In this document: positions 11,369 through 55,907 of the stretch, piece by piece
Numbering within the stretch: position 1 is the first letter of the stretch
Layout: every line of letters begins with the position of its first letter
Position numbers and translations under genes: made by a program
Source: a virus
Direction: 5' to 3' (one strand)
IMG/VR virus record: IMGVR_UViG_3300025812_000003
DNA length: 64,000 nt
The notes under the pieces: generated by a model
What the model was told of the DNA's origin: nothing
The model's input: only the letters and a program-made list of their open reading frames with translations
Database searches by the model: none

Positions 11369-13921
11369 TCAGGCGCTTGTGGCGGCGGCCAGATTCTTAG
11401 CTGCATTCTCCGTCTTCTTGAAGCGTGCGTGACAGTTGGGGCATTCGAGCCTGTTGTTCTTCGTGACGCCGAATGCGCCGAAGTAGCCGCAGGAGTTGCA
11501 CGTCTGTACGACTTCGAGCGACGCCGCTTTCGTGACTGCGACCTCCACCCCGTGATTCCGTCCGATGTTTCTGAGGATGGCGGTGAAGTCCCCCAGGGCC
11601 AGCCGCTGCCTGTATTCGTGGAACATTTCCGTCTTCTTGGACTTTTCCCGGCTTTCCCCGATCCCCTTGACGTCCATGTTCTTGATTACGACCTTCCCGT
11701 AACCATTGTCCGCCAGCGTCTGCATGATCAGCGTGCAGACCTTCTCGTACTCCTTCTCGCGGCGACCGGTAATGCGCCCGCTGATGAAGTTGAACAGCTC
11801 TCCGGCCTTGGCGTCCTCGGTCGCCCATTTCACGATTGCCGCCCTGGCCTCGGGATGCGCCGCCATGAGGATGTCGTCCTTGAGCAGGCTTTTGATGCCC
11901 GAGGAACGGCTTCTTTTGAGCCAGGGAGGAACATCGTCGCCCAGCTCCTCCATGAGGTGTTCTTTGAGGCGATCCTCGCAGAGGTCCCGCTCGGCCTGCA
12001 TCTCCTTCTTGTACTCGAACGTGTCGGTTTCCTTCTTGCCATGCTCCCGGTTCCGCCTGCCCCACCGAGTTTCGCCCAGTTCGGCCACGAAGGGCTCGGG
12101 GTCGAAGGAGAAGAGCCTGACGCCTGTTTCCTTCTCGGTCACGATGCGCATGTTTAGCATCTTCGAGGAGGCCGCGTCCAGGACGTCCATCTTGCTTTCG
12201 AAGTCAGAGGCGCTCTCGGTCCCCCCTTCCGGCAGGCCGCTGGAAGCAAGCCACTTGCCCGTCATGCCGCTCCATTCGGCAGCCGATAGGAAACTATGTC
12301 GCAGCTCGGGGCGCTCGCCGAGGACGCCCGCGACGGCGTATGCCAGCATCGGGGGCCTCGGGTTCATGTTTGCGAAGATCGCCATCGTCCTGCCTTCGGC
12401 GGGAAGGCTCAGGGTGCCGATCTGTGCCAGGTTCTCCCTGGTGCTCCATCGCAGGTCGAGGCCTGCGGTGCTCCCCTTCACGGGCGCAGGGGCGGGCAGC
12501 TCCAGCGATAGGGAGAGCGAAATCCTCCCCGTCCTTTCCTTGAAGGAAAGCCACCATTTCTTGATGTAATGGCTTCCGGCCTTCTCCCCGAGGTTCGACG
12601 TTATTAGGACCCCCACGGTAAAGGGCTTCAGGCCCTTTCCGCCGGAGAATGTCAGGGGACGTAGCTGCCGGTTTCTCCAGCGCTTTCCCCGGCCCTTGCC
12701 CGCCTCCTCGTGCCCGCTGTCCTGGGGGTCTACGGGAGGGCCCAGCGTCAGGCCTAGTACTTCCTGGCCCGCAAGGAAGCTTCGTATGGTGGTGGCCTCC
12801 GAGTTCCCTTGCTTGTTGCGGTTGGCAAGGGTGATGTTTCCGCTTTTCTCGTCCTCCTCGTAGCGCAGCTTCGGGAGCCCCTTCCATGGCTTCTCGTCGT
12901 TGGTTATGCGCTGCTTCAAGGTGCATTTGATGTTCTCGAACACGACGTCCCGCTCCGGCAGGGAGGAGAACATCTGCCGGACCCCGTCCAGGCTGGGGGC
13001 CTTGTTCGGCCGCTGCTTCCATCCTTCCTTGTCGTCGAACACCATCTCCCTGAGCGGATATTTCCCTGCGCGCACGTCCGGGTCGTTGCGCCAGCATTCG
13101 TCCCAGTGGTTGATCATGCGGAAGAGCGGGGTGAAGTCGGTGGGATATTGGGCGAGGAACTTGTCAATCTCCTCCAAGAGGCCTTCGGGCACGGGATGCT
13201 CGTGCTTCTTGTCGTGCCGCAGGTTGCTGGCAACCATCCGCAAGGAGACAGCGGACAAATCCGTCTTCGCCTTTTCGCTGAGCTCGTTCTTGTAGGAGAA
13301 CTTCCGGCCCTTGCCTTGACGCATGTTGAACTGGTCGAGGACCTCGACCACGTGAGTGGCGAATGTCCCGAGTTCCACGGCCGGGATGCTCTGCGTGCAT
13401 GCCCGAAGGGCTTCCTTGAACATGTACGCCATGTGCTGCCTTGCCTTTCTGACCCTCGTCTTGACGCCTTCTAGCCACGCTGGAATCTCACTGGTGGCTA
13501 TGCCCACATGGTGTAGGTAGATGGGCATCAGCCAACCCTTCGATATGGAGGTCGAATCTCTTTTTATCCCTGTGTTTCCGGAGATCACGAAGACGGTTTC
13601 GGGATGCTTCTTGGTCGCCACTCGCTGCTTGAAGGTCGCCAGGCGTTGGCACGCCTTTCCGTTGACCATGTAGGGCGTCTCGGAGGCATAGAGGACGATC
13701 TCGATCTGTTGCCCGGCTTCAACCATCCCGTCCATCGCCACGGGGGAGTCGAGCACGGCCCTGTTCCTCCCGCTACCGATGGACAATTTATGTGTTTTCG
13801 GGAAAAACGCAATGGTTCCCGATGAAAATTGTCTGGACTTCGACCTATCTATTCGGTCGGCATGCAGTCGGAGTTCCGTCCCGTCCCATGTCACCTTCGT
13901 CCATTCCGCCTTTTTGAGCAT
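11369..13921 (-). CDS. cas12: Type V (TnpB/Cas12-family) effector, ~850 aa, predicted nuclease-inactive RuvC
   Basis: RuvC-I AGLDLRW, bridge helix GRREKEYEKV, RuvC-II region VVIKNMD, zinc finger CNSC..CPNC, C-terminal TENAAKNL (cf. DxNAAxNI). GGGAGG RBS before ATG 13921. Co-oriented with the CRISPR array. Confidence 0.85.
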   Translation of the reverse strand: MLKKAEWTKVTWDGTELRLHADRIDRSKSRQFSSGTIAFFPKTHKLSIGSGRNRAVLDSPVAMDGMVEAGQQIEIVLYASETPYMVNGKACQRLATFKQRVATKKHPETVFVISGNTGIKRDSTSISKGWLMPIYLHHVGIATSEIPAWLEGVKTRVRKARQHMAYMFKEALRACTQSIPAVELGTFATHVVEVLDQFNMRQGKGRKFSYKNELSEKAKTDLSAVSLRMVASNLRHDKKHEHPVPEGLLEEIDKFLAQYPTDFTPLFRMINHWDECWRNDPDVRAGKYPLREMVFDDKEGWKQRPNKAPSLDGVRQMFSSLPERDVVFENIKCTLKQRITNDEKPWKGLPKLRYEEDEKSGNITLANRNKQGNSEATTIRSFLAGQEVLGLTLGPPVDPQDSGHEEAGKGRGKRWRNRQLRPLTFSGGKGLKPFTVGVLITSNLGEKAGSHYIKKWWLSFKERTGRISLSLSLELPAPAPVKGSTAGLDLRWSTRENLAQIGTLSLPAEGRTMAIFANMNPRPPMLAYAVAGVLGERPELRHSFLSAAEWSGMTGKWLASSGLPEGGTESASDFESKMDVLDAASSKMLNMRIVTEKETGVRLFSFDPEPFVAELGETRWGRRNREHGKKETDTFEYKKEMQAERDLCEDRLKEHLMEELGDDVPPWLKRSRSSGIKSLLKDDILMAAHPEARAAIVKWATEDAKAGELFNFISGRITGRREKEYEKVCTLIMQTLADNGYGKVVIKNMDVKGIGESREKSKKTEMFHEYRQRLALGDFTAILRNIGRNHGVEVAVTKAASLEVVQTCNSCGYFGAFGVTKNNRLECPNCHARFKKTENAAKNLAAATSA

Positions 13922-14018: not shown

Positions 14019-14369
14019 ATGCCAATCAAGCCGAGGACTTGCAGGAAATGCACGAAGAACTTCGTACTGATGCCCGGGAAGCCCGGCAACGCCAACGACT
14101 GCCCATCGTGCTCCGGGGAGGACGTCCCCCTGGTGATGGCGAAGGTGAGCTGGGAGGGCAAGCACTGCATGATCCTGGAGATCACCGCCGACAGGGCGGA
14201 GGCGGAGCGGTTCAACCGTGCCCAGGCCAGGGGCGGCATGGGCCCGCTGTCGGCGATGTGCGGGAGCGGCGAGGACAAGGACGGCCAGGAGGCGTCGAAG
14301 CAGAGGACGGGGGCGGGGGTCGGGGACCTCTACCGGTCGAGGCTCAACGAAAAAAGAAGGGTCAAATAG
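14019..14369 (+). CDS. small zinc-ribbon protein
   Basis: CRKC..CPSC; GGGAGG RBS. Confidence 0.7.
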   Translation: MPIKPRTCRKCTKNFVLMPGKPGNANDCPSCSGEDVPLVMAKVSWEGKHCMILEITADRAEAERFNRAQARGGMGPLSAMCGSGEDKDGQEASKQRTGAGVGDLYRSRLNEKRRVK

Positions 14370-50045: not shown

Positions 50046-51020
50046 ATGGAATTGGATGAGATGTACGACAGGGTGACCATTGCCTTCGCCAAACGGACAA
50101 ATTCCGTTTTTGAGTCGGAAGAGTCACTCAAAGAGTGGTTCTTAAAATACTTTTCCCAATTACCTTTTGACAGGACAAATCATTGGGGAGGCTTAATCTA
50201 CCTTCTTTTTCGTGATGCGTGGCTGGAGGCGGGCCCGGAGGTCAAGGGGGAGCCGACCGGGCACGACAGGAACGTCGTCCTCAGGAAGCTCTGCCCCCTC
50301 CTGGACTACAGCCTCTTCACGCAGGTGATGCTGAACCTCCAGTCCTGCGCTGGCATGGCCTACCAGGCAAGGGACGCCGAGGCCGACATCGAGAAGCTCA
50401 GGAAGGACTGGCCGGAGGCCTCCAAGCTCAAGCCGTTCGAACCCAAGGCCAAGATGGTCAAGGAAGCGTCCACCGAGGAGGAGGACAGGTACAACCTGGT
50501 CCTCAGCACCCTGCGGTCGCTGAGGATCATCGCCGCCTTCACCCCGCAGATATCCTTCAGGGTCAGCCCCAAGGGCAGTACGCCCGCCCTGGCCGACAGC
50601 AACAACCTGAGCAACCTCGGGATCGGGTCGGACAGGTACCTAAAGGTCCTCCCGGGCCTGAGGGCGTTCTACGTGCATTGGACGCCCGGCACCAGTCCCA
50701 CCATGACGATGCAGCTCATGGATTACTCCGAGACGACGAACCCCGAGAAGGGCATGGCGTTCGTGGCCGCGGGCATCCCCTACGTGTTCCGTTCCAAGTC
50801 GGGAGGGGAAATCCTCAACCAAGTCCTGTTCTCAAGGAAGGTCGCACGGGAAATCTTCGCCGCCCACGACCCGACCGTGGAGACCTGCATCATCCTCCCG
50901 AGGATGAGCTCGGTGCTGGCGGTGGCGGACGAGAGGGGAGAGAACCTGAAAAAAGCGTTCGAGGCCCTGAAAGGGGTGTATAATATGCTTGAGCTTTCGG
51001 AAGGAGCGAGAAATGCATAG
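50046..51020 (+). CDS. hypothetical protein
   Basis: GGAGG RBS; 324 aa. Confidence 0.75.
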   Translation: MELDEMYDRVTIAFAKRTNSVFESEESLKEWFLKYFSQLPFDRTNHWGGLIYLLFRDAWLEAGPEVKGEPTGHDRNVVLRKLCPLLDYSLFTQVMLNLQSCAGMAYQARDAEADIEKLRKDWPEASKLKPFEPKAKMVKEASTEEEDRYNLVLSTLRSLRIIAAFTPQISFRVSPKGSTPALADSNNLSNLGIGSDRYLKVLPGLRAFYVHWTPGTSPTMTMQLMDYSETTNPEKGMAFVAAGIPYVFRSKSGGEILNQVLFSRKVAREIFAAHDPTVETCIILPRMSSVLAVADERGENLKKAFEALKGVYNMLELSEGARNA

Positions 51021-51445: not shown

Positions 51446-51775
51446 ATGAAAAGGCCGATTTTCTGGTATGTTGCCATCGTCCTGTTCCTCGCCCTTTTCC
51501 CGATGCCAGCAAACACCAAGGACGACATGCGCATGTTTAGCTGGAAGGGCGAGAGGACCCCGAATGGGGTGATGCTCATCGAGCCCATGATGCCGGTCAA
51601 GCTCCGGGTGGCACCGACGTCCGCCAAGGACATACTCCCCAAAGCCACATACAAGTGCGTGCCGGTGACGCTGCCTCTCGAATACAAGGAGGACTCGAAG
51701 GACAAGGTCGTCCAGCAATTGCACCTTGACTGCGGAAACACGACGTTCGTGGTCCTGGGGATAGAGTTCCAATGA
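51446..51775 (+). CDS. putative secreted protein
   Basis: AAGGAGG RBS; signal-peptide-like N-terminus. Confidence 0.7.
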   Translation: MKRPIFWYVAIVLFLALFPMPANTKDDMRMFSWKGERTPNGVMLIEPMMPVKLRVAPTSAKDILPKATYKCVPVTLPLEYKEDSKDKVVQQLHLDCGNTTFVVLGIEFQ

Positions 51776-52047
51776 GCTTCCTGGTCATAGCGGGCTCGTG
51801 CTTGTTCCTGATTCTTGCGGGATGGATCATCCACGAGATGCTGGGAAGGCCGGTCGCCCCGGACGGGGTGTTCAAGGAAGTCCTGAGGATGCTCCTGTTC
51901 TATCCCTCCATGATCTTCGGCAACGGCGAGTTCGTGGCAAAGAGCGGGACGCTCAAGTTCCGGTTCCTGGAATGGCTGTACGGGCCAGGGGAGCCCGAGT
52001 TCGACGTAATATGGCCAGACGATGACAAAGAGGACGGGAATCCATGA
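51772..52047 (+). CDS. small membrane protein
   Basis: ATGA overlap; hydrophobic N-terminus. Confidence 0.6.
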   Translation: MSFLVIAGSCLFLILAGWIIHEMLGRPVAPDGVFKEVLRMLLFYPSMIFGNGEFVAKSGTLKFRFLEWLYGPGEPEFDVIWPDDDKEDGNP

Positions 52048-52191
52048 AGAAGCTTTCGAAATCCAAGGTCAACTACCGGAAGCACGAGCGCAAGATGTTC
52101 GCCCGGCAGGACAGGCGAGAGGCCGCCAGGCAGGCATCGAAGGCCATGAGGCAGCCCGAAAGGAAAGCGGAAGGTTGAGGAGGTCGGGCAG

Positions 52192-52395
52192 ATGAGCGAT
52201 CACCTCAGCACCAATGAATGGATGGTCATATTCGCTTTGAAGAAGGACCCTCGTTGCAAAATCATCGGGGACCAAGCGGAGACGGCGGAGAAAATGGTCG
52301 GGGATGGACTACTCCTGCGCAGCGCCAAGAACAAAGGAGAATATAGCGTAACATCCCAAGGATGGAGGCAGTACTACCACGTGGTAACGGGATAG
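52192..52395 (+). CDS. small hypothetical (winged-helix-like) protein
   Basis: GGAGG RBS; GLL..YSVTSQG. Confidence 0.55.
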   Translation: MSDHLSTNEWMVIFALKKDPRCKIIGDQAETAEKMVGDGLLLRSAKNKGEYSVTSQGWRQYYHVVTG

Positions 52396-52413
52396 CACAA
52401 CGGAGGAAAACAA

Positions 52414-52608
52414 ATGAGGAACCCATCGGTGTACACGGCGTCGGAACTGGCCGCCTGGCGGACAGCCAAGCAGTGCGCGCCCGGAAGGTGGCAGCCGTCG
52501 AGGCCGCTGCCGTTCTACGGCCTGAGGCTGATCCGCAGCTTCCGGCTCGCCTGGCGGGTCTTGGTCGGGCGCTATGACGCCCTGGACTGGGAAGACGGGG
52601 CGGCCTGA
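52414..52608 (+). CDS. conserved phage hypothetical protein
   Basis: GGAGG RBS; W.P.RPL..RLAWRVLVGRYDAL.W. Confidence 0.7.
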   Translation: MRNPSVYTASELAAWRTAKQCAPGRWQPSRPLPFYGLRLIRSFRLAWRVLVGRYDALDWEDGAA

Positions 52609-52618
52609 AAAGATTTCC

Positions 52619-52647
52619 TTGAAATTTTTGACTACGGAAGGTATTAT
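52619..52647 (+). promoter_or_regulatory. sigma70-type promoter for the tRNA operon
   Basis: TTGAAA (52619-52624), 17-nt spacer, TATTAT (52642-52647). Confidence 0.7.
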
Positions 52648-52798
52648 ATGGACGAACGAAGTTTGGCATTCGAAGCAGTTTGGCGTAGGGGCTGGTCAGC
52701 AGCCCCTACGCCTTAGGAAAGCGTCCCGTGCGGGCAGTTGGCTCTAGGCACCATTGAATTCCGGACGACGTTCCGGCCACGGGGCATGAGGTTTGGAA

Positions 52799-52891
52799 AT
52801 GAAGAACCTGTCGAGCAACCCGTCATCGTCGCTAAGCTATCCGTCCTTGCTTAGTAGCGTGCCTGTGTCGCTCGAAGAAGGCGACTCCTAG
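52799..52891 (+). CDS. Ser/Leu/Tyr-rich leader peptide (30 aa) MKNLSSNPSSSLSYPSLLSSVPVSLEEGDS
   Basis: GAGG RBS; 11 Ser, 5 Leu and 1 Tyr codons; lies directly upstream of the terminator and the tRNA cluster. Confidence 0.7.
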   Translation: MKNLSSNPSSSLSYPSLLSSVPVSLEEGDS

Positions 52892-52952
52892 AGGGAGCGC
52901 AATTCGAGTTTAAGACCCAGGCCGCCAGAGAGTTTGGCGGCCTTTTTGTTTT
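52857..52952 (+). terminator. Attenuator: intrinsic terminator (52919-52952) with a competing antiterminator (52857-52876 : 52903-52925)
   Basis: aggccgcca/tggcggcct stem followed by TTTTGTTTT. gcctgtgtc/gacccaggc and gctcgaa/ttcgagt pairings would sequester the 5' arm. Confidence 0.75.
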
Positions 52953-52954
52953 GT

Positions 52955-53043
52955 GTCAGGGTGGGCGAGCGGCTAATGCCAGCAGACTGTAAATCTGCCG
53001 CCCCTTGCGGGCTCCGCAGGTTCGAATCCTGCCCCTGGCACCA
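52955..53043 (+). tRNA. tRNA-Tyr (GTA)
   Basis: Cloverleaf, CTGTAAA loop, long variable arm, TTCGAAT, encoded CCA. Confidence 0.95.
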
Positions 53044-53048
53044 GATTT

Positions 53049-53134
53049 GCGGTCGTGGCGGAATTGGCAGACGCACAAGGTCGAGGGCCTTGCGGTTAAC
53101 AGCCATGGGGGTCCGACTCCCCCCGACCGCACCA
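53049..53134 (+). tRNA. tRNA-Leu (GAG)
   Basis: caagg-TCGAGGG-ccttg; GGCAGAC D-loop; atypical T-loop TCCGACT; CCA. Confidence 0.85.
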
Positions 53135-53139
53135 GGATC

Positions 53140-53245
53140 GTTCGGCTAATTCTATGAAACGGAAGCTGGCAGACCCCCCAGTGACCGGCGAAAGCTGTGG
53201 CAGGCGAGATCACGCCAAGGCGCTTGAGTAGCTGGTCGTCGAACA
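53140..53245 (+). ncRNA. unidentified structured RNA within the tRNA cluster
   Basis: gttcggc/gtcgaac closing stem, cggc-GAAA-gctg tetraloop, Leu-like ggaa..ggcagac segment; no clear cloverleaf or CCA. Confidence 0.35.
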
Positions 53246-53253
53246 TAGGATTT

Positions 53254-53331
53254 GCGCAGGTGAAGGGAACCGGCAGACCTCCCTGGCTTAGAACCAGGGG
53301 CTTGGGGGTTCGACTCCCCCTCTGCGCACCA
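53254..53331 (+). tRNA. tRNA-Leu (TAG), short variable loop
   Basis: cctgg-CTTAGAA-ccagg; only ~5 nt of variable region; CCA. Confidence 0.85.
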
Positions 53332-53337
53332 AGGTTT

Positions 53338-53424
53338 GCGGCTGTGCTGAAATAGGCAGACAGGCCAGGCTCAGAACCTGGTGGTGGAAACACCGTGGAG
53401 GTTCAATTCCTCTCAGCCGCACCA
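53338..53424 (+). tRNA. tRNA-Leu (CAG)
   Basis: ccagg-CTCAGAA-cctgg; long variable arm; CCA. Confidence 0.93.
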
Positions 53425-53429
53425 AGTTT

Positions 53430-53516
53430 GCCCTCGTGTCGGAATCGGCAGACGAGCACGGCCCAAACCCGTGTGGCCGAAAGGCCATGGAGGTTCAAGT
53501 CCTCTCGGGGGCACCA
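53430..53516 (+). tRNA. tRNA-Leu (CAA)
   Basis: cacgg-CCCAAAC-ccgtg; long variable arm; CCA. Confidence 0.88.
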
Positions 53517-53522
53517 GGATTT

Positions 53523-53607
53523 GCCGGGCTGGCGGAAACGGCAAACGCGGGGCACCTAAAACGCCCTGGCGAAAGCCTTGAGGGTTCGAGTCCCTCGCCC
53601 GGCACCA
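53523..53607 (+). tRNA. tRNA-Leu (TAA)
   Basis: gggca-CCTAAAA-cgccc (31:39 mismatch); long variable arm; CCA. Confidence 0.85.
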
Positions 53608-53613
53608 ATTTTC

Positions 53614-53701
53614 GGAGGGGTGGTCGAGCGGTCTATGGCACTCGACTGCTAATCGAGTAGGGGTAACACCCTCGCGGGTTCGAATCCCGCCCCCTCCGCC
53701 A
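53614..53701 (+). tRNA. tRNA-Ser (GCT)
   Basis: ctcga-CTGCTAA-tcgag; G73; CCA. Confidence 0.95.
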
Positions 53702-53708
53702 AAGCTTA

Positions 53709-53794
53709 GGAGGGCACCGCCGAATGGTCGGCAACTGGCTTTGAACACCAGGGCCGGGTAGCACCGGGGCGTTCGATTCGTCTGCTCTCCGCCA
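53709..53794 (+). tRNA. tRNA-Ser (TGA), atypical 8/4 fold
   Basis: GGAGGGCA/TGCTCTCC 8-bp acceptor, ggcg/cgtc 4-bp T-stem, TTTGAAC loop; CCA. Confidence 0.85.
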
Positions 53795-53852
53795 TTGCTA
53801 AAGCGGATTTGCTCATTAAACCAGATTGGTTTAGAGAGCAATCCCAATTTAC

Positions 53853-53940
53853 GGAGAGGTGGCCGAGCGGCCTAAGGCGCACGCCTGGAAAGCGTGTAGC
53901 CCGCAAGGGCTCGTGGGTTCGAATCCCACCCTCTCCGCCA
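53853..53940 (+). tRNA. tRNA-Ser (GGA)
   Basis: cacgc-CTGGAAA-gcgtg; G73; CCA. Confidence 0.95.
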
Positions 53941-54097
53941 TTTTGCCGTGTTCACGGCTCCATGAACACGGCTCAGATCGTGAACACAAGATGGAAATAT
54001 CTTACGAGCAGTTCATTAACGAGATTTCGACCTCCATCGCAACGGGCCACAAAGTGACACTGGAATGCGGTGGCAAGACTTACGCCTACAAGTTCAC

Positions 54098-54183
54098 GGA
54101 GGACGCCGCCGAACGGCCGGCAACCGGCCTCGAAAGCCGGGGCAGGGCAAAACCTGGGGGTTCGATTCCCACGTCCTCCTCCA
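54098..54183 (+). tRNA. tRNA-Ser (CGA), atypical 8-bp acceptor, U73
   Basis: GGAGGACG/CGTCCTCC acceptor, ccggc-CTCGAAA-gccgg, TTCGATT; ends TCCA. Confidence 0.85.
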
Positions 54184-54234
54184 ACTCCCTTCCCTAGAAT
54201 CCCTGCTTTCCATACCTAAACAGAGGGCGAAAAC

Positions 54235-54417
54235 GTGAAGAGGGCCATCCGGCTGTCCGTGGAATGGCAGATGCTCAGCAAGACGGTGGAGTTCGGCATC
54301 ATATTCCTGGTGCTGGGGCGGCTGTCCCTCAGCCTCCTCATCACGGGGATCACCACGGCGGTGCAGGTCGCCCTGCTCGCCCTCTGGATCAGGTTCCGCC
54401 TCAAGGAACGGGGGTAA
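54235..54417 (+). CDS. small membrane protein
   Basis: GAGGG RBS with GTG start; hydrophobic. Confidence 0.55.
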   Translation: MKRAIRLSVEWQMLSKTVEFGIIFLVLGRLSLSLLITGITTAVQVALLALWIRFRLKERG

Positions 54418-54419
54418 AC

Positions 54420-54887
54420 ATGGCCAAGGAAGTACTGGCCCCGAACAAGTACGGCCCCGAGGGCTACAAGGTGTTCCTGGGCGGTGCCATAGACCAGGGG
54501 ACCGCCGAGGACTGGCAGTCTCGGGTGGTCGATGCGCTGGCGGACGTGGACGTCGTCGTCCTCAACCCCCGCCGCGAGGACTGGGATTCTTCATAGGAGC
54601 AGTCCGCCGACAACCCCGAGTTCAGGCGGCAGGTGGAATGGGAGCTCAAGGCCCAGGAGGATGCCGATCTGTGCGTCTACGTGCTTCTCAAGGACAGCAA
54701 GGGCCCCGTCACCATGCTGGAAATCGGCCTGTTCGCCCCGAAGAAGGACGCCGTCCTGTGCATCGAGGACGGGTTCCACAGGCAGGGCAACCTCCAAATC
54801 GTGGCCAGACGCTACGAGATTCCGTTCTACCACGGCCTCGACGAGATGCTGGCGGACCTCAAGGAAGTCTTGAAGGGACGTGCCTGA
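54420..54887 (+). pseudogene. nucleoside 2-deoxyribosyltransferase-like protein with an in-frame TAG at 54594-54596
   Basis: VFLGGAID..DWQ..LNPRREDWDSS*EQ...F..QVEWEL..SKGPVTMLEIGL; the family normally has W at the stop position. Confidence 0.75.
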
Positions 54888-55324
54888 TGGACGGCAGGCT
54901 GGGCTGGCAGGAACTCGGATCGACCTACCTATACCACGGCACCACGCAGGACCGCCTGTCCGGAATCCTGAGGGAGGGCATCAGGGGGCCTAGCTGGTGG
55001 GGCACGGAGCGCGTCGCCGAATACTACTCCGAGGACAGGGAGGCATCCAGGAACGACGACGAGCTGGTGGACCTGGACTACATCGAGGAACCCCCAGCGG
55101 AGCCGCTCGTCGTCCGCGTCCCGCTGTCGAGGTTCGACAAGGGGTCGCTTGCGGCGGACGAGAACTCCATCGCCGAGCCGCTCACCAACGTCCTCGGGCG
55201 GGACGAGGAACGTCTGTATCACCAGTGGATGCTATCCAGGCGCACTTGGCAGGACTGCCTGAGGATATACGAGTCGGTGTGGTACAACGCACCCATGGAA
55301 GTCACCGAGGCCGACATCCTATGA
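54887..55324 (+). CDS. ADP-ribosyltransferase-fold-like protein
   Basis: YLYHGTT....ILREGI N-terminal motif. Confidence 0.5.
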   Translation: MDGRLGWQELGSTYLYHGTTQDRLSGILREGIRGPSWWGTERVAEYYSEDREASRNDDELVDLDYIEEPPAEPLVVRVPLSRFDKGSLAADENSIAEPLTNVLGRDEERLYHQWMLSRRTWQDCLRIYESVWYNAPMEVTEADIL

Positions 55325-55355
55325 CGCGGAAGGAAATCCCGGGGAAGGAGGCCCG

Positions 55356-55907
55356 ATGCTGAAGCTCGCGGCGGAGTTCCTCGTCAGGGCGAGGCTCCCC
55401 AGGCGTCCGGGGATGGTCGGGCCGGTCTACCACGGCACCTCGCAGGAATTCGAGGACTTCAGCCTGCCCGAGGACGTCGCCGATGAGGACTTCGAGGGGA
55501 TCGGCGTCCACTTCGGCACCGTGGGGCAGGCGGAGACCGCCGCCAGGCGGTCCCCGGGCATCATCCGCGACGAGGGTTCGCCGGGGGAGGGGGCCAACAT
55601 ACGCCCGGCATACCTGAAGATTGGGAAGCCCCTGCGCATGCCGGACATGAACGAATGGGACCCCGAGGAGGTCGCCTACTGGCTCCTGGGGCACGGGGTC
55701 GTCGACCGGGGGCAGCTCTCCCGCATGCTGGCCATAAGCCGGGCCCCGGGGGGCATCGACTACACGGCGGGATACAGGCTCATCCGGGAATGGCTGGACG
55801 CCAAGGGATACGATGCCATCGTGTACAGGAACAAGAAGGAGGGCAAGGGCGACAGCTACGTCGTGTGGCACCTGGGGCAGATAGTGCCCGCCCTGAGGGA
55901 GGAATAG
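55356..55907 (+). CDS. ADP-ribosyltransferase-like (ART-PolyVal-type) protein
   Basis: VYHGTS..F..F, GVHFGT, IRPAYL.I.KPL, GYDAIVYRN..EG..SYVV....QI. Confidence 0.7.
   Translation: MLKLAAEFLVRARLPRRPGMVGPVYHGTSQEFEDFSLPEDVADEDFEGIGVHFGTVGQAETAARRSPGIIRDEGSPGEGANIRPAYLKIGKPLRMPDMNEWDPEEVAYWLLGHGVVDRGQLSRMLAISRAPGGIDYTAGYRLIREWLDAKGYDAIVYRNKKEGKGDSYVVWHLGQIVPALREE

Follow-up and report, generated by a model that had tools for sequence, protein, structure and literature searches.

A cassette of promoter, leader ORF, antiterminator and terminator that precedes the Tyr-Leu-Ser tRNA operon of this giant phage from peat is likely to be a ribosome-mediated attenuator of the phage's own tRNA genes. 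The window on which this is based is a stretch of 64,000 nt from the IMG/VR virus record IMGVR_UViG_3300025812_000003. Sequence comparison establishes the predicted anatomy of the cassette and its conservation in 26 distinct relatives, and it likewise establishes that other arrays, in the same phage and in seven relatives, have leaders of their own whose predicted amino-acid make-up mirrors the array. Given this match between leaders and arrays, each tRNA block is probably transcribed more when the matching codons are decoded slowly. We read these elements as a family of ribosome-mediated attenuators that would feed decoding capacity back onto tRNA transcription. To our knowledge, the control of large tRNA sets by phages is essentially not understood, and we know of no leader-peptide attenuation of tRNA genes in general.

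In the window, the ORF nearest to the cassette on its upstream side ends at 52608. The promoter that follows is the sole promoter-like site within 51500-55500 (Table 1). Its extended -10 sequence, GGTATTATRT (52640-52649), occurs once in the 64-kb window, where 0.01 occurrences would be expected, and recurs upstream of a second tRNA array of the same phage, in a viral record of 95 kb (G001) that also contains the window DNA; this type of promoter looks reserved for tRNA operons. A 5' untranslated leader of ~150 nt lies between promoter and ORF. It contains a perfect hairpin, which may contribute to stability or to pausing, and a hairpin resembling it is found in one relative (L003).

The leader peptide, MKNLSSNPSSSLSYPSLLSSVPVSLEEGDS, contains 11 Ser (TCG four times, AGC three times, TCC twice, TCA and AGT), five Leu (CTG, CTA, TTG, CTT and CTC, each once) and one Tyr (TAT). 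The original prediction, made from the letters of the DNA, had described a 30-codon uORF with 17 Ser, Leu or Tyr codons, and our recount returned 17/30 and the same list of codons. As Ser, Leu and Tyr together make up 17.5% of the residues of long ORFs in these phages, the binomial probability of 17/30 is 1.6e-6. A content of 57% is reached by 0.6% of 841 small ORFs (20–35 codons) from the same loci, a comparison set that itself includes leaders. Clustering of the putative regulatory codons extends to the whole family of leaders that precede a first tRNA-Tyr, in which Ser, Leu and Tyr account for 32–70% of residues.

An intrinsic terminator separates the leader ORF from the tRNA genes, and it stands directly before the first of them, as had been proposed: the stem (52919-52943) consists of 11 pairs, 7 of them G-C, is followed by TTTTGTTTTG, and the tail ends 1 nt 5' of the start of tRNA-Tyr. 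The ten Tyr, Leu and Ser tRNAs announced for the downstream region were also recovered. ARAGORN reports nine of them; the tenth (53708-53791) scores under the Rfam cut-off and was assigned by alignment to a relative's tRNA-Ser(TGA), with 70/90 columns aligned and an identical anticodon loop. The ten tRNAs can together read all Tyr, Leu and Ser codons. In bacteria, the acceptors of these three amino acids are the class-II tRNAs, which carry a long variable arm.

Table 1. Features of the leader and tRNA operon in the window (positions are those of the 64,000-nt stretch).
Feature	Position	Strand	Description and basis
Sigma-70-like promoter of the leader/tRNA operon	52619-52647	+	TTGAAA-17-TATTAT; 10/12 matches
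Perfect hairpin in the 5' untranslated leader	52682-52712	+	13 bp, 5-nt loop; MFE and centroid folds
Shine-Dalgarno-like GAGG	52788-52791	+	7 nt 5' of the ATG; from sequence
Leader ORF	52799-52891	+	ATG at 52799; 30 sense codons and TAG; MKNLSSNPSSSLSYPSLLSSVPVSLEEGDS
Control-codon stretch	52808-52858	+	Codons 4-20, L S S N P S S S L S Y P S L L S S
Putative antiterminator, 5' strand	52856-52874	+	In the 3' half of the leader ORF; RNAduplex, co-variation
Putative antiterminator, 3' strand	52906-52926	+	13 nt before the terminator and the first 8 nt of its 5' arm
Intrinsic terminator	52919-52953	+	11-bp stem, 3-nt loop, T tract; -17.2 kcal/mol
Ten class-II tRNA genes	52955-54183	+	Tyr(GTA); Leu(GAG, TAG, CAG, CAA, TAA); Ser(GCT, TGA, GGA, CGA)

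Two unusually long spacers (53135-53253 and 53941-54097) lie within the array, the second of which contains an ATG-initiated ORF (from 53991) that extends into tRNA-Ser(CGA). In relatives, entire ORFs stand between tRNA genes; one of them, in L089, resembles a GIY-YIG homing endonuclease. Pfam searches with 11 neighbouring ORFs of the window gave no link to tRNA metabolism. Among these surroundings are a nucleoside 2-deoxyribosyltransferase-like gene that is seemingly split over two frames (54416-54596 and 54633-54887), with the 54633-54887 piece alone matching Pfam PF15891 (profile positions 58-105), and a 183-residue ORF (55356-55907) with a sub-threshold match to ART-PolyVal (PF18760; 29.4 bits vs a cut-off of 31.2).

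Relatives were fetched with the 324-residue protein encoded next to the cassette (50046-51020) and its alignment, in three rounds that yielded 4, 31 and 61 loci on contigs of viral and metagenome origin, most of which belong to giant phages (100–455 kb) of peat, wetland and soil. Among GenBank phages no close relative was found, with matches at the level of the tRNAs only, and an exact search of viral contigs for the leader motif returned just two relatives, both already known. From the fetched loci we took 26 distinct regions located 5' of a first tRNA-Tyr. A homologous leader ORF of 23–31 codons, with the core L-S-L-x-Y-(Y/S)-L-L-S-G, is present in every one of them, which answers the question, raised with the original prediction, of whether the uORF is conserved. 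Start, stop and frame are maintained in 26/26, with lengths that differ by whole codons. The ORF is always followed by a hairpin (-12.1 to -21.7 kcal/mol) and a T tract, and in 24/26 the tRNA starts 55–72 nt past the leader stop codon; in the two others, L089 has a 53-codon ORF and L096 ~100 nt inserted 3' of the terminator. Leaders that end in TAG number 4/24, that of the window included.

Some of these genomes also encode tRNAs with stop-codon anticodons. The relatives G002, G003, G005 and G007 encode amber-suppressor-type tRNAs (anticodon CTA; loci L107, L110, L118 and L128), and G006 carries an ochre-type tRNA (TTA, L120) together with a UCA anticodon (TCA, L125). Such suppressor-type anticodons hint at stop-codon reassignment in these giant phages.

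Codon changes among related leaders point to what is under selection. Codons 1-20 can be aligned without gaps in eight leaders; in these the Leu of codon 4 is written CTG, CTA, CTC or TTA, that of codon 10 CTG, TTA, CTC or CTT, and the Ser of codon 11 TCG, TCC, TCA or AGC. These Leu and Ser switches, including those between TCN and AGY, alter up to three bases and leave the amino acid unchanged. Each of the four Leu isoacceptors common to all arrays is represented by its codon (CTA, CTG, CTT or TTG) in 24/24 distinct leaders; with the Leu codon usage of these phages (CTA 7%, TTG 12%), 2.9/24 leaders would be expected to contain all four. As the leaders are related, these are not 24 independent events. 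For Tyr, TAT is used in 27/40 leader codons, compared with 526 TAT to 1100 TAC in long ORFs. Taken together, the substitutions demonstrate, as far as comparison of aligned leaders goes, selection on the identity of Ser, Leu and Tyr codons. The correspondence with the array is inexact in places: leaders of arrays with at least three Ser tRNAs have 9–13 Ser codons, and the more distant leader of G006, whose array has two Ser tRNAs, has 8, but the leaders of arrays that have no Ser tRNA still hold 2–8. Nor did leader TTA codons track the presence of tRNA-Leu(TAA) across relatives.

Leaders of different composition are found in front of other tRNA arrays. The second array of the same phage (L113; G001:38000-44300, reverse strand, ~11 kb past the end of the window) encodes Arg x3, Asn, Lys, Phe, Met x2, Pro x3, Gln, Trp and Arg x3, and is preceded by a 91%-identical copy of the promoter. 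Its leader reads MRNRKPNPMQWQPKRNHFRP..., with the C-terminal end ...MRNRKPNPMQWQPKRNHFRPGYGGPPFAGSA, and its terminator is formed by GGCCCGCCG..CGGCGGGCC followed by TTTT. Past the conserved ATG, 18 of 19 codons specify amino acids of that array, rare Trp included, and none of the 19 specifies Ser, Leu or Tyr. Between this terminator and the first tRNA lies ~470 nt of structured-looking RNA with no match to tRNA models.

All tRNA clusters of seven relatives (G002–G008) were scanned as well, giving, with G001, 23 sets of leader, terminator and array in eight genomes. The codon-matched uORFs that the original prediction would have us look for before other tRNA clusters were therefore found both in the same phage and in the seven relatives. 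Five or six classes of leader can be told apart: Tyr/Leu, with or without Ser; Val/Gly/Ala/Cys/Asp/Glu (e.g. MNFNFTNAGWQTGAVGAVAAVCEAEGIVAAGAADSVPSEGWDD); Ile/Thr/Gln (e.g. MKQTQTTRTTTTQRIITGV...); His/Arg/Asn/Lys (e.g. ..AKSSRKHQRRNNRW..), merged with Phe/Met/Pro/Gln/Trp in G001 and G004; and Ser alone, in G003 (MVRIHALSSSSSSSRSG...). In this last genome a separate leader with a run of seven Ser codons precedes the Ser array, and the leader of the Tyr/Leu array contains just 3 Ser. The arrays of G002–G008 are themselves sorted into class-II tRNAs, those for GNN-codon amino acids plus Cys, those for Ile, Thr and Gln, and those for basic and amide residues, and the order is largely the same from phage to phage.

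Since each array has its specialist leader, an internal test by permutation is possible. The score of a leader against a given array was the share of leader residues for which that array encodes a tRNA. The true assignment of leaders to arrays was the single best permutation in 7/7 genomes with at least two sets (2, 6, 120, 24, 6, 6 and 2 permutations per genome), and 0/200000 joint random assignments reached the true score. A 39-codon ORF at L018 was omitted from this test; its terminator lies 339 nt 5' of the array, with the true leader between them. Individually, the own array scores highest for 20/22 leaders, and the two exceptions are Tyr/Leu leaders, whose antiterminator half is rich in Gly and Val and so inflates the score for Val/Gly/Ala. 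Because of the homology among leaders of one class, genomes cannot be counted as independent cases; independent evidence comes from the five or six classes and from the rearrangements, in which Ser is either inside or outside the Tyr/Leu array and arrays that have merged are preceded by merged leaders.

A further group of loci shows a different arrangement. A conserved small ORF (MRPTPMFRPCTP.. and variants) stands before Pro(/Met/Phe) arrays in L026 (~13744-13816), L031 (~14258-14333), L034 (~13474-13552), L021, L029, L035 and L037; in L037, where the array is Pro-Phe-Pro-Pro, it reads ..RPTFRFRPQP... No canonical terminator of hairpin and T tract was found before the Pro/Met/Phe arrays, at which a conserved pairing between GTGCGCGGGGG and CCCCGCGC may serve as a substitute.

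An attenuator would further need an antiterminator whose formation excludes the terminator. A pairing of 52857-52876 with 52903-52925 had been put forward, and RNAduplex essentially recovers it as 52856-52874 with 52906-52926 (-21.7 kcal/mol; z -1.9 vs shuffles). It would join the 3' part of the leader ORF to the 5' arm of the terminator, so that the two structures are mutually exclusive. The inputs were the ORF past its last Tyr codon on one side, and the 14 nt upstream of the terminator with its 5' arm on the other. In the Tyr-first relatives the predicted helices comprise ~15–22 pairs with energies of -9.7 to -35.1 kcal/mol and a mean z of -3.8 against shuffled strands; the weakest value, that of L026, is artefactual, as a third Tyr codon placed late in the ORF left a shortened stretch for analysis. 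Over all array classes, the duplex between ORF and terminator arm has z < -2 in 23/23 sets (mean z -3.9).

The two strands have changed together. Cognate duplexes average -24.7 kcal/mol and non-cognate ones -17.0 kcal/mol, and 0/10000 permutations were as good. In a clade with a flipped terminator stem (GGCGGCT..AGCCGCC in L018, L045, L051 and L053), the ORF strand carries ..GCCTCGT.., complementary to ACGAGGC, and in the clade with terminator CACGAAGCC it is GGCTTCGTG. RNAalifold, run on MAFFT alignments of the antiterminator region, returned just 7 and 4 consensus pairs with near-zero energy, one of which reflects this exchange between clades, being C-G in 6 sequences and U-A in 4. These few pairs are explained by a helix register that varies between clades. 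The case was therefore built on duplexes of single sequences, controlled by cognate/non-cognate comparison and by shuffles, with RNAalifold and the fold models as weaker support; a position-anchored table of duplex pairs is descriptive only, its entries being predicted pairs by construction. Folding of the two alternatives, as the original prediction advised, returned both structures, and the per-strand comparison demonstrates that the predicted pairing of the 3' half of the leader ORF with the 5' arm of the terminator co-varies. No conserved anti-antiterminator was found among the leaders. In the centroid fold of the window a hairpin (52827-52859) forms within the control codons, a candidate for the pause or anti-antiterminator (1:2) hairpin that would synchronise ribosome and polymerase, but as a structure it is not kept in all clades.

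The layout of leader, antiterminator and terminator is the classical one of the trp, his and leu attenuators, in agreement with what had been claimed. A ribosome covers ~15 nt behind and 12 nt ahead of its A site, the footprint assumed here. The last Tyr codon lies ~13 nt 5' of the antiterminator strand, and a ribosome stalled anywhere up to there should therefore leave the strand free. The loop between the antiterminator strands is ~23–30 nt and includes the stop codon, so that a ribosome at the stop codon would sit between the strands and keep them apart. Direct melting of the terminator by a ribosome at the stop codon was considered and rejected, as the stop lies 27 nt before the stem.

Ribosome positions were modelled with ribosome-sized masks and equilibrium partition functions. 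For the window, the outcome agrees with the proposed switch: the modelled probability of the terminator is 0.0–0.1 when codons 8-11 or codon 16 occupy the A site, 0.3–0.7 for codons 12-15, 0.8–1.0 from codon 17, 0.7 at the last sense codon and 0.58 without a ribosome. Across the family the outcome was mixed, the equilibrium models backing the switch in about half of the leaders only: in 12/24 the mean terminator probability is at least 0.6 even with a ribosome on the control codons. In a second model, in which transcripts were cut before the 3' arm of the terminator, the 5' arm is, as expected, more sequestered at control codons than later in 22/24 leaders (0.78 vs 0.54), and the window itself is nearly flat (0.67 vs 0.62). 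Attenuation is a kinetic process, and equilibrium models therefore test it weakly whichever way they come out. The modelled thermodynamic support for the switch in the window is modest, and the comparative evidence carries the case.

On this anatomy, the attenuator would work as follows. Host RNA polymerase would start at the promoter and a ribosome would translate the leader, transcription and translation being assumed to be coupled. When Ser, Leu and Tyr codons are decoded fast, the ribosome would pass the 5' antiterminator strand and reach the stop codon; standing between the strands, it would allow the terminator stem to form, and transcription would end 1–10 nt before tRNA-Tyr. When any cognate aminoacyl-tRNA is scarce, the ribosome would stall in codons 4-16. 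Such a stall within the control-codon stretch would leave the 5' strand free to pair with the 3' strand, sequester the 5' arm of the terminator and permit readthrough into the ten tRNA genes. RNase P presumably removes the leader from the readthrough RNA. The tRNA products would then relieve the stall, a negative feedback specific to each array, and the loop should be self-limiting because its products speed the decoding of the leader. As no conserved anti-antiterminator accompanies the leaders, an untranslated leader should also read through. The natural trigger may be codon demand of the phage, host shut-off, limitation of an amino acid or a tRNA-cleaving defence.

Two simpler accounts of the same sequences appear very improbable. 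According to one, the ORF simply encodes a micro-protein and has a terminator of its own, constitutive leak-through supplies the tRNAs and the match in composition is incidental. The peptide is indeed conserved and terminators 3' of short genes are common, but the terminator arm and the 3' half of the ORF have changed together, each of the five or six unrelated classes of peptide mirrors its own array, and there is no promoter between terminator and tRNA nor any other promoter-like site in 51500-55500 from which the tRNAs could be transcribed. These peptides of 23–31 residues are also rich in Ser and Leu, lack conserved fold features and gave no signal of Pfam or any other family. A micro-protein gene with an unrelated terminator was rejected by the co-variation of the strands and the array-matched composition. 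The other account, to which we give equally little credence, makes the open frame a by-product of an RNA element, either a T-box-like riboswitch that binds tRNA or a processing or stability structure. It would fit the stability of the 300-nt leader region, which exceeds that of shuffles (z -3.8). However, Rfam searches of 52300-54600 at E values up to 1 returned tRNA-type models and a few sub-threshold, unrelated families, with no leader or T-box match, and at gathering score the loci of ten relatives gave tRNA families only; a T-box or other known RNA family was rejected for want of a covariance-model match. An RNA element would also sit poorly with the start, stop and frame kept in 26/26 despite whole-codon indels, and with synonymous and TCN/AGY switches that preserve the amino acid and not the bases.

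The third alternative accepts the cassette and differs on its task. Host anticodon or tRNA nucleases would cleave particular classes of tRNA upon infection, and each leader would sense this and switch on exactly the replacement array, the trigger supposed in the original prediction, which we consider possible and rather unlikely. The array-specific leaders and the presence of one codon per Leu isoacceptor in 24/24 would fit a sensor of individual tRNA species more than one of an amino acid, and the array of the window consists of exactly the class-II tRNAs. In the available text of PMC13462974, mammalian SLFN11 is reported to prefer type II tRNAs and bacterial Schlafen nucleases to cut host and phage tRNAs; the bacterial Schlafen studied there, however, acts broadly and beyond class II (PMC13462974). 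Moreover, nothing in the window or the loci links the cassette to a nuclease, and every class of array has a leader, which general supply-and-demand control fits at least as well. We are similarly hesitant about the widest version of our own proposal, a modular, isoacceptor-resolved tRNA thermostat of giant phages with one leader per array, in which each leader would sample just the codons read by its tRNAs, decoding capacity would be gauged one class at a time and the missing classes only would be re-supplied; its boldest form is a sensor of tRNA-cleaving host immunity that would call up the matching replacement tRNAs. The reading that we prefer remains the attenuator of the phage's own tRNA operon.

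If this reading is true, the operon produces the molecule that its leader senses, and supply and demand for translation capacity would be linked in a direct loop. It would bear on why phages carry tRNAs at all, be it codon demand, host shut-off or escape from tRNA nucleases, and synthetic biology would gain compact sensors with codon specificity. With several specialist leaders in one genome, the idea lends itself unusually well to testing.

Among known systems, T-box riboswitches bind uncharged tRNA directly, without translation, and couple the supply of one tRNA to terminator readthrough. The phage cassette resembles them in coupling tRNA supply to readthrough of a terminator; unlike them, it has a conserved ORF that is predicted to be translated, and no T-box match. 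The attenuators of enterobacteria (trp, his, leu, thr, ilv, pheA and pheST) combine a short translated leader with clustered codons, a terminator and an antiterminator. A listing of pheL is found in PMC3082878. The phage cassette shares with these systems the short leader with clustered codons, an intrinsic terminator ahead of the genes under control and an antiterminator overlapping both the 3' part of the leader and the 5' arm of the terminator, and it resembles the thr and ilv type in having a leader for several amino acids. It differs from them in four respects. The genes downstream are ten tRNAs and not biosynthetic or synthetase genes that make or charge the sensed amino acid, and the operon product is therefore the very molecule sensed. 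The system is phage-borne, with several differently composed leaders per genome, one per array. Its leaders span the codons of all isoacceptors, whereas enterobacterial leaders repeat one codon. Finally, there is no relationship in sequence or in Rfam.

In searches of openly available full-text literature we found no account of tRNA genes, phage or cellular, under leader-peptide control. In its logic, the closest analogue with experimental data is the whiB7/wblC uORF of Actinobacteria (PMC10274678). Like the phage cassette, whiB7 is described there as combining a uORF with a Rho-independent terminator and an antiterminator; in experiments, the shortage that triggers readthrough was set by the amino acids of the uORF, and readthrough was also induced when tRNA and synthetase genes were knocked down (PMC10274678). 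Unlike the phage leaders, the whiB7 attenuator, as presented in that text, controls a transcription factor and acts as one Ala-rich general sensor per genome, and its uORF is not matched to downstream tRNA genes.
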